Source of the DNA: a virus
Lineage: Duplodnaviria; Caudoviricetes
Strand: one strand, 5' to 3'
DNA: 51,218 bases
Virus record (IMG/VR): IMGVR_UViG_3300036790_000100
Location: 1-51,218 of that record
Part shown: piece by piece, positions 41,653 through 49,056 of the stretch
Layout of the letters: every line of letters starts with the position of its first letter
Numbering within the stretch: the first letter of the stretch is position 1
Program-made: the position numbers and the translations under genes
The notes under the pieces: generated by a model
The model's database searches: none
Told to the model about the DNA's origin: nothing
The model's input: the letters and a program-made list of their open reading frames with translations, nothing else

Positions 41653-42251
41653 GACTGCAGGCTCCGGCAAACCCACTCTGGCACCTCGATATCCAGGCGC
41701 CGATTCGGCCGGCGCACTTCGCGGTGCAGGACGATATGTCGCAGGAGGGACATTTCCATCCACACATCGTTGAGGCAGTAGTTGATGACGCGGCCGCGCT
41801 GCCCGCGCTGCCACCAGATCGGCGCCATCGCGCCGTCGCCAGTCTTGTTGATGCGCAGCGTCTCTCCGCACACCGCATCAAGTCCCCATCCGCCATGCGT
41901 CGCCGGCTGAAACCGATCCGGGTCCAGGCCCTGCGCCACCCAGATCTGCTCGAGCATGTCGTAATGCAGCTCGTCATTCAGCTGCAGGCCGTGCTCCTCG
42001 AGGAGCGGCTTGTCGAAGCGGCGCGTGTTGAAGCCGGCGGTCGCCCGGTTGGTGAGGTAGCCCTGCAGCTCCTGCAGGTCCTCTTTGAGCCAGGCGCCGG
42101 TGAGGCCGGTCACCAGGTCATAGGTGCACACCACGGTGATGCCCATGCCCTTGAAATCGCGCCAGCCCTCGCAGTACTGGATGTCCGGGTGGCGCACCTG
42201 CCCGCGATAGGGCGGGATTGCTTTCTCGATTTCGACGTCGACCACGATCAT
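41649..42251 (-). CDS. RNase H-like / DEDD 3'-5' exonuclease
   Basis: VVDVE, GFN...FD..LL, L..V...L...KTG.G..A...W, YCLNDV. Confidence 0.8.
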   Translation of the reverse strand: MIVVDVEIEKAIPPYRGQVRHPDIQYCEGWRDFKGMGITVVCTYDLVTGLTGAWLKEDLQELQGYLTNRATAGFNTRRFDKPLLEEHGLQLNDELHYDMLEQIWVAQGLDPDRFQPATHGGWGLDAVCGETLRINKTGDGAMAPIWWQRGQRGRVINYCLNDVWMEMSLLRHIVLHREVRRPNRRLDIEVPEWVCRSLQS

Positions 42252-43708
42252 GTCGTTTCCTCCGCTGTGGTGGTTTCTTCTGCATCGCGCGCGTGGCCGT
42301 CCTCAATGACGAAGCCGATCTTGCCGCTGGCATCGACCCGCTCGATCCACACCTGGAACTTCCGGTCCTTGGCCTTCGCCTCCAGGATCTTCATGCTGTC
42401 CGGATCCAGCAGCGAGCCGTCGCGGATCCGGATCACGCGCAGCTTCGGGCTCATGGCCATGGCGATATCGCACGAGGCGGCGAGCTGCTCGGCATCCGAG
42501 CCCTGGTTGAATGGCACGCCATTGAGCAGCACCTCCTCATCCCCGAAGCCGATGCCGGTGACCGGGATCTGCGCCGCGGCGATCGCGGTGTTCTTCTCCG
42601 CCTCCCGATCGGTGATCTTCTTCGTGAGCGCCTTGGACTCCAGCTCCAGGCGTGCGGCGTTCTGCTCGTGCACGTTGCGCTGGCGCAGCCGCTCGGCCTG
42701 CGCGTTGGCGGCGGTGGCAGCATCGATGCGCTTGGCCAAGGCCTCCGTGTCGATCGGCGCCGGGAGCACCTCGGCCTCATCCAGCTGCTTTTGCGCCTCG
42801 GCCGCCGCAGTTTCAAACTCCTGCGCATTGCGCTCGACCTGCGCCTGGTGCTGCTCCAGCTCGTGTTTCTCGCCGGCGTCCAGGCTATCGAGCTTCAGCC
42901 GCTCGTTCGCAATCTCCGCCTCGAGCTCCTGGATCCTGGCGCGCAGCTCAGCGGCGTGCGAGGCGTAGCGCTTGGCGATCTGATCAATTCCGACGGCGCT
43001 GCTCTCCCGGATCTGCGCGGCGCGGTTGCGCGATGCCACGACACCTTCCGCGATCGCCTGGCGCCGGACCTTCCGGGTCTCGATCGAGGTGTTGAAGCCG
43101 CCGGCCTCGCCGAGCTGCTCGACCAGGGCCTTCACGTCCACCAGGTCGGTGGTGGTGCCTTCGGGCACGACGATCACGGCCGCGGCGCCGCGTTGCTCCT
43201 CGGCCGCCCGGTTGATGTCCTGGCGGCGCGTGTAGTCGCCACGGTTGGCGTCGGCGATCGCCTTGAAGTCAACGCCCGGCACAAAGCGCTTCAGCTGGTC
43301 GTACTGCTCGCGCGGCTTCATGCGGGCGAACTCGAGCGGATCGAAGGTCAGCGCGCCGAAGAATGCATCGAGCATCTTCTGCGGGGACTTGTACATCGCC
43401 CCGTCCGGGCTCTCCACGGTGATCGAGGTGGTGAGCTCCCCGCCGGCCCTGATCTTGAAGGTACGAGTAACGATGAGCTCAGGCTGTCCATCGCCGAGCA
43501 CCAGGATGATGCTGCCTTCTTGGTTCCCCTTTCTGATCGGTGTGGACTGGATCGCATCCTTGCCGTCGAGCGCCCACCAGATGCTGTCGAGTACCGAGGT
43601 TTTCCCGTTGCCGTTTTTGCCCGTGATCTGGACCAGGTTGCCACGCGGCTTTATCTGGACAGCGACGATCCGCTTGATGTTCTCAGCCTGAAAATTAATT
43701 ATTTGCAC
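42248..43708 (-). CDS. SMC/Rad50-like (AAA_23) coiled-coil ATPase
   Basis: Walker A GKNGNGKTS, long coiled coil, signature-like QGSDAEQ, Walker B/D-loop IRIRDGSLLD. Confidence 0.9.
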   Translation of the reverse strand: MQIINFQAENIKRIVAVQIKPRGNLVQITGKNGNGKTSVLDSIWWALDGKDAIQSTPIRKGNQEGSIILVLGDGQPELIVTRTFKIRAGGELTTSITVESPDGAMYKSPQKMLDAFFGALTFDPLEFARMKPREQYDQLKRFVPGVDFKAIADANRGDYTRRQDINRAAEEQRGAAAVIVVPEGTTTDLVDVKALVEQLGEAGGFNTSIETRKVRRQAIAEGVVASRNRAAQIRESSAVGIDQIAKRYASHAAELRARIQELEAEIANERLKLDSLDAGEKHELEQHQAQVERNAQEFETAAAEAQKQLDEAEVLPAPIDTEALAKRIDAATAANAQAERLRQRNVHEQNAARLELESKALTKKITDREAEKNTAIAAAQIPVTGIGFGDEEVLLNGVPFNQGSDAEQLAASCDIAMAMSPKLRVIRIRDGSLLDPDSMKILEAKAKDRKFQVWIERVDASGKIGFVIEDGHARDAEETTTAEETT

Positions 43709-43712
43709 AAAA

Positions 43713-43777
43713 TCACCCTACCGTGCCTTAGCCCACCTGGCCCCGCCTTGCGCGGCCCCGGTCTGCCATGCCACGCC
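43713..43777 (-). ncRNA. GGY-NN pentamer array downstream of the RAMP-like gene (putative guide RNA, 13 units)
   Basis: + strand reads tcacc ctacc gtgcc ttagc ccacc tggcc ccgcc ttgcg cggcc ccggt ctgcc atgcc acgcc. 10 of 13 units are exact NNRCC, and the array fills the intergenic gap. Confidence 0.8.
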
Positions 43778-43781
43778 GAAA

Positions 43782-44402
43782 TTATTTGAGACGCTCGAAA
43801 CGCGTGAGGTCGAACCTGCCATAGGTCGGACGGAAGTCACCCACCCCGATGAGCCGGCCGGCGATGCCGAGCAGCTCGCGCAGGAAGATCTCGTCCACAT
43901 ACTCAGGTAAGTTCACCATCAGATCGAACTGAGCCTTCCAGCCGGCACGCATTGCAGGCCGAACGCGCGTGATCGCACTGCGCTGGATCACGACACGGCG
44001 AGCATCCTCATAGTCCCAATCCTTCACGCCCAGCGGTGCAAGTGGCGTAAGGGAAATCACACCAGCCTTCACCAGGTCCATGGCGCTCTTGCGCGGGCTG
44101 CGCGGATCCTGGCGGAACTTGGCCGCATTGACGACAGCGCCGCGTAGATACTCTCCGGGGAGGCACAGGCCACCCTTGGCATCGCGGTACACATAGCTCT
44201 CAACGTTGTCCGTCTTTTTGCTCGCAGAACCTTTGCGTGCTGCGGCCTTCTCGGCGACAGCTTCGTTATTCCAGCGATGAAACAGAAGGTCCGCGCTGCC
44301 GGTGATCTGCACCCTGGCAGTCCACGGCTCGCTCAGCTCGATCTGTTCCTTCGCACCATTGGTCGCGTCAGCAATGCTGACGACTTTCGCAGCCTCTTTC
44401 AT
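43782..44402 (-). CDS. Stand-alone RAMP/Cas7-like RNA-binding protein (Vipr-like)
   Basis: N-terminal strand V.ITG..DLLFH, LPGEYLRGAV (RAMP IPG.S.KG equivalent), RVRP thumb, C-terminal Gly-rich loop AG.LIGVGDFRP.YGRF; AAGGAAGG RBS; no other cas genes. Confidence 0.75.
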   Translation of the reverse strand: MKEAAKVVSIADATNGAKEQIELSEPWTARVQITGSADLLFHRWNNEAVAEKAAARKGSASKKTDNVESYVYRDAKGGLCLPGEYLRGAVVNAAKFRQDPRSPRKSAMDLVKAGVISLTPLAPLGVKDWDYEDARRVVIQRSAITRVRPAMRAGWKAQFDLMVNLPEYVDEIFLRELLGIAGRLIGVGDFRPTYGRFDLTRFERLK

Positions 44403-44425
44403 TGAACACCTTCCTTATAAAAACG

Positions 44426-44630
44426 GAACCTTACCCAACCCAACCCAGCACCGGCTCGCTAGGCCCGATCCGATCACACCTCACCGCACCGCGGATTGCC
44501 CCGCATGGCCATGCCACACCAAAACTTGCCCCACTCCGCCCGGCCGTAGCTCGCCTAACCATGGCGCGTCAAGCGGTGCCATACCATGCTCGACCTAACC
44601 GGACCTTTCCCCGTCCAGGCTTGACTCGCC
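44426..44630 (-). ncRNA. GGY-NN pentamer array upstream of the RAMP-like gene (41 in-phase units)
   Basis: Strict 5-nt period over 205 bp: 23 of 41 units exact NNRCC on the + strand, 17 more with one mismatch. Confidence 0.8.
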
Positions 44631-44638
44631 TAATTCAA

Positions 44639-44698
44639 GAGGCATGCAGTGCCAGGCCACACCGAACCACAGCATTGCTAGCCCGACACTGCCGTACC
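44639..44698 (-). ncRNA. Third GGY-NN pentamer block (12 units, shifted phase)
   Basis: gaggc atgca gtgcc aggcc acacc gaacc acagc attgc tagcc cgaca ctgcc gtacc; 7 exact units; separated from the long block by the AT-rich linker TAATTCAA. Confidence 0.7.
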
Positions 44699-44702
44699 AG
44701 AT

Positions 44703-45809
44703 TCATAATTTACCGCCCTCGGCCAGCGCTTCCTTCTTCTCGACGTAGGCGGCATGCACGGCGTTCGGGATCTCCCGGGTGCTCGCGGCGTAGTCGGTCC
44801 ACACCTTCGTCTTGATCAGCTCCAGTTGCTTGAGCGTGGTGCTGGCGCGCAGCTCGAAGGCAGCCGTGTCATCCGAGTAGTACGGCACGTAGTTGCTGGA
44901 CGGCTTCTTGTCTGGCTCCTTGGCCGCCGCCGGCGTCACTTCCTGTTTTGCTTCCGGTTTTGAGGCCGCGGCCGCGGGCTGCTCGGCCGCCTTGCGCAGT
45001 GCCTCCTTGGCGGCATCCGCGCGGCTCGCCGGGGTCGCGCCCTCCAGCTGCGGGAAGGACTCATCCACCGTCGCATCGCCCTCCTTGATCGCAGTCTTGA
45101 TGCCAGTGAGCAAGGTGAGCTGATCGATGCCGATGTCAGCTTCTCCGGTCACCTCGAGCACCGCGAACACGCGCGCCTGGTCGATGCCCAGCTTGCGGAT
45201 CCAGTCCATGACCTGGCCGCGGCGCTTGGCCAGCGTCGTCGCATCCCCGATCGCCACGCGCCGCGCCTCGGTCTCGAGTTTGCGGCACAGCGCCTTCGGC
45301 ACCACCGTGAAGGTCGCATCGCGGCGGGCCTTCGCCAGGCACGCCTTCGCCACCACCACGCGCATGCGCTCGCTGTAGGGCTTGTTGTACTTGTCCACCG
45401 TGGACTCGATGACCTCCGATTCGCTGGCGAAGTTGGTCTCCAGGTCGTGCGCGTAGCCCTTGGCCTTCACGTAGCGCGGCGTCATTTCCACGATCATCGC
45501 GCCCACGCGCAGGTTGCCGTAGCAGCCGCCGACGATCTCGGCCATGCGGATCGACATGCCTTCGGCGAACTTGCCGCCGCCGACGGGCCGGCTGTACAGG
45601 CACGACTCGGCCGTCTCCTCATCGAGCGTCACCATTTCGAGCGCGCGCTTCTGGAACTTGGCGATCGATCGCGGGTAGGCATGGGCGGTGGCGATCTGCC
45701 GATCGATCTGCGCATCGGTGATCGACTTCAGCGCCTGGTTCACGCTGTCCTGGACGGAGACGATCTCCCCGGTGTCGCCGTCGATGACCTGGCTGCCTTC
45801 GGTGCTCAT
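44703..45809 (-). CDS. Putative single-strand annealing/recombination protein (partner of YqaJ)
   Basis: IDRQIATA..YPRS..EG.SIR.AE...GNL core with flexible C-terminal tail; coupled to the YqaJ gene. Function inferred from position only. Confidence 0.55.
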   Translation of the reverse strand: MSTEGSQVIDGDTGEIVSVQDSVNQALKSITDAQIDRQIATAHAYPRSIAKFQKRALEMVTLDEETAESCLYSRPVGGGKFAEGMSIRMAEIVGGCYGNLRVGAMIVEMTPRYVKAKGYAHDLETNFASESEVIESTVDKYNKPYSERMRVVVAKACLAKARRDATFTVVPKALCRKLETEARRVAIGDATTLAKRRGQVMDWIRKLGIDQARVFAVLEVTGEADIGIDQLTLLTGIKTAIKEGDATVDESFPQLEGATPASRADAAKEALRKAAEQPAAAASKPEAKQEVTPAAAKEPDKKPSSNYVPYYSDDTAAFELRASTTLKQLELIKTKVWTDYAASTREIPNAVHAAYVEKKEALAEGGKL

Positions 45810-48148: not shown

Positions 48149-48168
48149 ACGTGTGGGACCCGGCTCTG

Positions 48169-49056
48169 ATGGTCGATCTGCCGAGGCCACCGATCGATCC
48201 GGACGTGGACCTCCGGAACTTCCCCTACCTTCCGCTCGATGTGGTAAGGCTCCGCGACAGCGACCTGGCGGCCTCGCCGCACCCCGAAGTTTTCCGCTGC
48301 GCGGTGCTCAGCTGGTGTGTCGCCTGGCACCAGACGCCAGCCGGCAGCCTGCCAGACGATGACGTGATTCTCGCCAGGCTGCTTGGCTATGGTAGAGACA
48401 TCAGAGGGTGGCAACGCATCCGCAAGAAGGGTGGTTTGCGTGGCTGGGCGCTTCATTCTGATGGTCGGTTGTACCATCCCGTTGTGGTGGAAAAGGCTAT
48501 AGAATCATGGCTTAAGAACAAGTCCAACCGGGCTAAAACGGAGGCGGCACGGCTGGCTAAACTCAAGCTGTCACAAGGTCAGTCACAACCTCTGTCACAG
48601 AGCCTGTCACTACCACTGTCACAGACGGAATCTTCCACTGTCACTGGATCCAAGGGAAGGGAAGGGATAGGAAGGGAAGAGAAGGGAAGGGACGTCGGAC
48701 CCTCCGTAGGTGCCCGTGACGCTCCTCCGGAGCCACCCACGCCGGATGAGAACCGGCGCGTGTTCCTGGCCTGCAAGTCCAAGTACCCCGGAGGGCTGCA
48801 CCGTGGCGATCACTGGCTGCTCGCCGAGCGCGAGATTGGGCTGAGGCTCGATGAGGGCACGCCAGGTGACGCGCTGATCGGGAACACTGAGGCCTATTGC
48901 GCTCAGCAGGAAGCCTTGGGCACGATCGGGACCGAGCGGGTGATGCGGCCGAATAATTTTTACAACGGCTCCGGCGCCTGGCGCGGTCCGTTCCCGCTGC
49001 CGGTCGCGAAGTCCAATCGAGCATCTGACCGAATCACTTACGTGCCGGAGGAGTGA
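48169..49056 (+). CDS. DUF1376 (YdaU-like) replication initiator
   Basis: DLRNFPYLPLDVVRLRDS..WHQ.PAGSLPDDD..LA.L..GW....DGRLYHPVV.EKA; internal iterons; C-terminal YP/FYN domain. Confidence 0.85.
   Translation: MVDLPRPPIDPDVDLRNFPYLPLDVVRLRDSDLAASPHPEVFRCAVLSWCVAWHQTPAGSLPDDDVILARLLGYGRDIRGWQRIRKKGGLRGWALHSDGRLYHPVVVEKAIESWLKNKSNRAKTEAARLAKLKLSQGQSQPLSQSLSLPLSQTESSTVTGSKGREGIGREEKGRDVGPSVGARDAPPEPPTPDENRRVFLACKSKYPGGLHRGDHWLLAEREIGLRLDEGTPGDALIGNTEAYCAQQEALGTIGTERVMRPNNFYNGSGAWRGPFPLPVAKSNRASDRITYVPEE
48568..48685 (+). repeat. Putative replication origin: C(T/A)GTCAC iterons plus purine tract
   Basis: Copies at 48568, 48580, 48592, 48604, 48616 (12-bp period) and 48638, followed by GGGAA repeats. 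Confidence 0.7.

Follow-up and report, generated by a model that had tools for sequence, protein, structure and literature searches.

Phased GGY pentamer arrays beside a small RAMP gene in a complete phage genome: a probable, partly decoded VIPR locus

Around one small gene of a complete viral genome, the minus strand is filled with five-base units that share a fixed triplet and differ in the two bases that follow. The genome, with its terminal repeats, comprises 51,218 bases and is the whole stretch of DNA analysed here (the window). The locus raises the question of whether the variable pairs are guides and, if so, what reads them. Based on the sequence and a structure model, positions 44426-44698 very probably hold the upstream guide RNAs of a VIPR system carried by the phage. 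This kind of system is already in print, and the locus is a further, partly decoded example of it. VIPR, first described in 2026, is a CRISPR-related RNA-guided DNA silencer. As described in that preprint, Vipr is an ancestral RAMP of ~20 kDa, its vrRNAs consist of 9-16 GGY/NN repeats, and the NN pairs recognise double-stranded DNA with one skipped base per unit, usually the wobble position; competing phages and satellites are silenced, and disturbing GGY abolishes silencing (bioRxiv 10.64898/2026.04.26.720920). A cryo-EM preprint describes one Vipr protomer per repeat (10.64898/2026.04.26.720927). The systems of SUSP1 and of a Pseudomonas fulva prophage are assigned to type II (10.64898/2026.04.26.720920), and their biology is treated in a further report (10.64898/2026.10.15.759431).

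Direct reading of the minus strand gave 12 phased GGY+NN pentamers at positions 44698-44639 (array A1) and 41 at positions 44630-44426 (array A2). The coordinates and both NN series (12 and 41 units) given by an earlier sequence-only reading proved exact when the strand was read again and a pentamer HMM was applied. Over the whole 51,218-base genome and both strands, the HMM found exactly three arrays, all on the minus strand; the third (A3, 43713-43777) consists of 13 pentamers and is located downstream of the 206-aa gene. The same HMM found no array on either strand of 10 dinucleotide-preserving shuffles of the window. In A1, the first position is G in 10/12 units, the second is G in 9/12, and the third is a pyrimidine in 11/12; 7 units have a full GGY and 5/12 do not. 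The corresponding counts in A2 are 34/41, 30/41, and 40/41, with a full GGY in only 23/41 units. Positions 4 and 5 are mixed in A1 and A2 alike. In the HMM, all 41 units of A2 keep a single phase over 205 bases, with no one-base shift.

The arrays are placed in a run of early genes on the minus strand. A RecE/YqaJ-like exonuclease gene (46861-45806) is followed by the gene of a phrog_3657 protein (45809-44703), a gap of 300 bases, the 206-aa gene (vipr, 43782-44402), a gap of 73 bases, the gene of an SMC-like ATPase (phrog_1499, 43708-42248), and the gene of a ParB-like protein. Phased G-G-pyrimidine-N-N units fill both gaps and stop a few bases short of the ribosome binding site or start codon of the gene that follows (vipr or the ATPase gene); A2 is followed by CGTTTTTAT and then by the ribosome binding site and start of vipr. 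No Cas family was detected in 13 neighbouring proteins with Pfam or in 6 with PADLOC, and Tandem Repeats Finder gave no long-period repeat of the repeat-spacer kind around vipr. Elsewhere in the genome, the plus strand at 48568-48693 contains 24-base direct repeats (2.4 copies) and eight copies of a GGGAA/AAGGG pentamer, upstream of the replication-protein gene (48151-49056, phrog_22470). These repeats are probably iterons of an origin. The GGGAA/AAGGG repeats are unrelated to the VIPR arrays because their third position is not a pyrimidine.

The 206-aa protein (phrog_4652) has no match in Pfam or PADLOC. Its AlphaFold2 model, built with 41 homologues, has a pLDDT of 89.4 and a pTM of 0.80. 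Foldseek returned 153 PDB matches at E <= 0.001 (top E ~2e-7), and among the matches listed all are CRISPR Cas7-family chains (type VII Cas7, Csm3, Cmr4, and Cas7-11). As modelled, the protein is a small stand-alone Cas7-type RAMP, in agreement with the Vipr build, in which an RRM core carries a glycine-rich loop and a thumb. In a translated search (tblastn) of 50,697 phage records, 122 records contained a homologue. A hypothetical protein of phiSUSP1, whose gene is located between arrays of GGTNN units with a ~40-base tail after each, was 30% identical over residues 71-199 (E 4e-7, tblastn). Pairwise comparison with SUSP1 Vipr gave an E value of 6e-15, and the identity was 27-30% across searches. 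The cryo-EM preprint names H17, R138, D177, W178, and R179 as the GGY readers of SUSP1 Vipr (10.64898/2026.04.26.720927). In the pairwise alignment, these residues correspond to H42, R148, D189, F190, and R191 of the present protein, all of which vary little or not at all among 42 homologues.

Homologues of this Vipr clade share 52-78% identity and occur both in viral contigs and in MAGs that span many phyla. The closest cultured relative is Phage DSL-LC04 (57% identity; OR003939.1, L083 4706-4958), which carries three arrays upstream of vipr; a perfect 12-base inverted repeat (TCTTAGTGGGGC / GCCCCACTAAGA) encloses the middle one, and the vipr gene is annotated as a helix-turn-helix regulator. 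The whole phage studied here also occurs as one contig in a MAG that bears the label Steroidobacteraceae (L084). Vipr homologues with 49-68% identity are present in MAGs labelled cyanobacteria, Planctomycetes, Patescibacteria, Bacteroidota, Bacillota, and others (L085-L101). This spread is unusually wide for so conserved a small protein.

The combination of arrays and gene recurs in relatives. With the HMM, same-strand pentamer arrays were found next to the vipr homologue in 96 of 98 related viral and genomic loci, where 257 arrays lie on the strand of the gene and 14 on the opposite strand. A simple run finder detected same-strand arrays in 78 of the 80 related viral loci. Over 5575 units from these 80 loci, positions 1 to 3 are G in 95%, G in 87%, and a pyrimidine in 90%, the first two figures being inflated by the run detection and the third not; the NN positions are nearly uniform. 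In-phase runs in the related loci peak at 10-16 units and reach 142, and 23 of 85 short linkers consist of one base. In the fetched flanks of vipr (up to 3 kb on each side), an ATPase homologue was found in none of the 98 loci, and homologues of the exonuclease and of the phrog_3657 protein in one locus each. The neighbours are not conserved; therefore, the conserved module consists of the arrays and vipr, with no evident accessory gene. The Cas7/RAMP fold, the homology to SUSP1 Vipr, the retained GG-binding residues, and the recurrent same-strand arrays together support the assignment to VIPR. A mark of VIPR is tandem GGY+NN (YNNGG) arrays of at least four units that flank the gene on its own strand; the three arrays here have 12, 41, and 13 units.

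If the published mechanism applies, transcription of the array would go along with that of the vipr gene or precede it. Each GGY triplet would be held by a single Vipr protomer, and the resulting filament would present the NN pairs. These pairs would bind double-stranded DNA and leave every third base unread, in most cases the wobble base, and the genes of competing phages would be silenced.

The NN pairs of two blocks could be assigned to targets. In A2, a 16-base seed from units 5-12 matched at least 20 viral contigs. In one of these (L223, GC 0.59), the match extends to units 3-14 (44561-44620, minus strand) with 24/24 bases, including 8/8 flanking bases; ~3e-4 such cases are expected over 20 matches. 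The NN pairs of these units correspond to codon positions 1-2 of MANVMMRYGLPQ on the opposite strand of a phrog_342 gene of other phages. The site encodes M-A-N-V-M-M-R-Y-G-L-P-Q, a conserved motif in a 1153-aa frame, and the skipped base is at the wobble position. This frame belongs to phrog_342, "internal virion protein with endolysin domain" (E 1.1e-97). Four homologous contigs (L237-L240, 67-77% identity) match 20-22 of the 24 bases at the same motif. No clear homologue of the target was found in the phage itself: its 1235-aa protein is not homologous, and the best tblastn hit elsewhere has an E value of 0.014.

The sequence-only reading had proposed that the arrays are gapped guides whose specificity resides in the NN pairs alone, read as codon positions 1-2; this coincides with the published VIPR rule and agrees with the 24/24 match of units 3-14. 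Its suggestion that the 41-unit block may be several guides was supported in part. Because units 3-14 match at 24/24, the block contains at least one 12-unit guide and is not a single 41-unit guide. Its peptide reading DKWGKPYRII... was on the wrong strand, since the target codes for MANVMMRYGLPQ on the complementary strand. The likeness that it had noted to the DKYNKPY codons of the upstream gene is noise: it amounts to 11/14 bases, and the whole block scores 29/82 against a background of 20.4 +/- 3.8.

The second decoded block is A3. Its NN pairs encode V-I-S/R-G-R-N-G-Q-G-K-T-S, which are the Walker A codons of the SMC-like ATPase genes of rival phages. An exact 9-unit (18-base) core was found in at least 72 viral contigs, whereas another 18-base pattern used as a control was found in none of the same collection. 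All 71 scorable sites encode ..GRNGQGKTS.., the Walker A motif, in frame. Over the full guide, the matches at these sites were 25/26 (1 site), 24/26 (31), 23/26 (25), 22/26 (12), 21/26 (1), and 19/26 (1). A homologue of the ATPase of the window is present in 70 of the 72 loci found with the core. The Walker A codons of the phage's own ATPase gene (42248-43708) are located at 43592-43630 on the minus strand and read ITGKNGNGKTSV; A3 matches them at only 17/26.

The one-base skip was examined by comparing every array with every locus. At skip 1, there were 640 seed matches with a top score of 25, against 357 (top 16) for skip 0, 406 (top 16) for skip 2, and 397 (top 18) for a reversed decoy. In the phage's own genome, no self-target was found at an NN match of 80% or more. 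The best 12-unit window there reached 19/24 (79%) at skip 1, which is at the noise level, and 17/24 at skips 0 and 2; over skips 0-3, the self-target searches returned only the trivial skip-3 self match.

These results allow a comparison with the known systems. Like the VIPR systems of SUSP1 and P. fulva, the present one has a stand-alone RAMP that keeps the GG-binding residues and whose gene is flanked on either side by GGY+NN arrays on its own strand. The code is again read with a one-base skip at the wobble position, and the targets found belong to competing phages, with no self-target. A one-base-skip target was found for A3 and for A2 units 3-14, and none for A1 or A2 units 15-41. As is reported for relatives of SUSP1, guides of other VIPR loci are aimed at the vipr gene. 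A site in the GDFRPTYGRF codons (43813-43841, plus strand) is matched at 20/20 by a guide of locus L031 (3629-3678), and a second one in the KKTDNVESYV codons (44188-44219, plus strand) at 21/22 by a guide of locus L050 (2918-2972). Both guides also match many other vipr homologues, and the sites are conserved motifs.

The locus differs from SUSP1 in having no structured 3' tail of ~40 nt after the arrays, which end in short T runs, and no conserved vap neighbour, where SUSP1 has a 146-aa gene after vipr. Thus, neither a structured 3' tail on each 9-16-unit tract nor vap1 after vipr, the marks of type II, is found here. Whereas published vrRNAs have 9-16 units, A2 is one uninterrupted block of 41. 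The long in-phase runs of the related loci (to 142 units) resemble the long VIPR arrays that, in the published descriptions, are cut into several vrRNAs without long spacers; unlike those arrays as described, A2 stays in one phase without a one-base shift. Compared with the backbone of class 1 CRISPR-Cas complexes (Cas7, Csm3, and Cmr4), the fold is the same, and one subunit per fixed guide step and periodically unpaired bases are common to both. However, the step is five bases with three sequestered, rather than six with one flipped, and the guides are written into the repeat. No CRISPR repeats and no other cas or adaptation genes were found among the neighbours tested.

The remaining units are less clear. 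Scans of the collections for targets used exact seed patterns only, and targets with mismatches in the seed could therefore have been missed. With these scans and the flank test, no convincing target was obtained for A2 units 15-41, and the exact 18-base pattern of units 1-9 occurred in no viral contig. Units 29-36 matched at least 112 contigs exactly, with a best flank score of 10/22, and were dismissed as noise. In contig L340, units 27-37 match 22/22 bases out of register with a 683-aa ORF, where ~0.03-0.1 such cases are expected; judged by this match, the site is an unconfirmed candidate target. Units 17-25 had at least 22 exact matches in metagenome contigs, 19 of which share a sense-frame motif, PGT[VI]GTRGGNFV. 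The three ORFs examined resemble what we take to be a thiamine-pyrophosphate enzyme of ~600 aa. The flanks reach at most 8/20, and we rejected this motif as a target, reading it as one chance match multiplied by homology. Two further features were seen beside the decoded guide. Units 15-20 (44531-44560), set against the six codons upstream of the target (L223 3291-3326), each match exactly one of two bases in 5/5 homologous contigs, and units 1-2 match the target flank perfectly if one codon is skipped. This pattern may be a trace of former collinearity with a longer stretch of a variant gene.

For A1, the exact-seed scans and the following sequence sets gave no convincing target. At full length with up to 3 mismatches, A1 was found neither in the MAG that holds the phage nor in any of 201 genomes sampled from its family. 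A1 and A2, compared with 171 loci, five whole genomes of ATPase-target rivals, and five partial genomes of virion-protein-target phages, gave noise, the known site aside. Units 3-10 matched at least 8 contigs exactly (best 20/24). Two of these matches, read on the opposite strand, fall in the genes of two proteins that are homologous to each other (E 4e-6), at the codons of the HTH recognition helix (..TDTIYR..); this is only a hint that A1 might read such a helix. Units 1-8 matched at least 20 contigs exactly, 14 of them a single low-GC phage cluster at 21/24; the flanks were not significant, and this candidate was dropped.

The AT-rich linkers and T runs that the sequence-only reading had described are present. 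A1 and A2 are separated by TTGAATTA (44631-44638, minus strand), the GAATCT linker overlaps the stop codon of the upstream gene, and the AATTTC linker follows the stop codon of vipr. T runs follow the 41-unit A2 and the 13-unit A3. The decoded guides begin 0-2 units past a linker, and T- or AT-rich linkers of a similar kind recur between arrays among the 98 related loci analysed with the HMM. These two observations fit a putative role of the linkers as processing boundaries only loosely. No promoter or terminator was found in a scan of 43500-45000, and a DNA search of the array region against the phage collection gave no match. Rfam at gathering thresholds gave no family in the whole window; therefore, no hammerhead or other known RNA lies between the arrays.

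The predicted fold of A1 has an energy of -32.7 kcal/mol (z -4.2 against dinucleotide shuffles and -3.3 against unit permutations). All three delimitable blocks (44639-44698, 44561-44630, and 43713-43777, minus strand) fold with their ends paired, the z scores against unit permutations being -3.3 for A1, -2.4 for A2 units 1-14, and -4.1 for A3. Some imperfect triplets pair with each other, such as the GTC in unit 2 and the GAC in unit 13. Hairpin closure as a feature of the whole clade was rejected; the 122 related arrays with 9-20 units had a mean z of -0.18, and z was below -2 in 7.

The assignment of every unit to a working guide can be questioned. Only 23/41 units of A2 have a full GGY, and disturbance of GGY is reported to abolish silencing; therefore, parts of A2 may be inactive. 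It is possible, though in our judgement doubtful, that A1 and A2 units 15-41 are decayed guides or structural or decoy RNA, and that only a minority of the units still silence. Full GGY is missing in 18/41 units of A2 and 5/12 of A1, the searches with exact seeds found no significant target for these parts, and A1 forms a stable hairpin (z -4.2). Solo vrRNAs acting as decoys are described in one preprint. However, the pyrimidine retained at position 3 in 40/41 units and the unbroken phase over 205 bases argue for continued selection. The characterised vrRNAs of SUSP1 also have imperfect units, 6 such units occur within the decoded guide (units 3-14) itself, and the sensitivity of exact-seed searches is low.

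Several other ideas were considered early and dropped, namely a TRAP-like leader, a CsrA sponge, G-quadruplex or switch-region-like DNA, and binding sites of an annealing protein. TRAP sites are (G/U)AG triplets with 2-3-base spacers and are bound by a ring protein. The five-base period resembles this triplet-plus-spacer layout, and the arrays end a few bases before the ribosome binding site or start of vipr and the ATPase gene, as mRNA-leader sites might do if a ring or filament protein controlled downstream translation. Such a role is nevertheless very unlikely, in view of the match, far above chance, between the NN pairs of two blocks and conserved runs of codons in foreign phage genes, which gives these pairs target information, and of the skip-1 signal, which is absent at skips 0 and 2. 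Moreover, the fixed triplet of the arrays is GGY and not (G/U)AG, and no TRAP-like family was found in the 13 neighbouring proteins. Least probable of all is a DNA element whose G-rich non-template repeats stimulate recombination through G-quadruplexes or R-loops beside the genes of the exonuclease and the annealing protein. A GG at five-base intervals on one strand would permit two-tier quadruplexes, and the RecE/YqaJ-like exonuclease gene adjoins the locus, but in related loci the arrays accompany the RAMP gene rather than recombination genes (exonuclease and phrog_3657 homologues in 1/98 loci each), and quadruplexes account for neither the strict pyrimidine at position 3 nor the decoded NN targets.

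The VIPR reading thus remains the preferred one, and it bears on how guides are made and used in this clade. Tail-less guides might be cut from long in-phase arrays and delimited by AT-rich linkers and self-complementary ends, with some departures from GGY serving as compensatory stem partners; in addition, allele-discriminating guides might silence the ATPase Walker A of rivals while the phage's own copy is recoded. We consider this combined proposal rather unlikely as it stands. The clade lacks both the tail and a conserved vap neighbour, and A2, with 41 units in one phase, prompts the question of what sets the guide ends. The gapped-guide logic of VIPR, published only in 2026, was recovered here by reading raw sequence. 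The locus adds a complete 51-kb soil-type phage whose natural targets are identifiable, namely the internal virion protein gene of a rival clade and the Walker A codons of rival ATPases. The guide in A3 spares the phage's own ATPase allele by only a few codon changes, and guides of other VIPR loci match the phage's own vipr.
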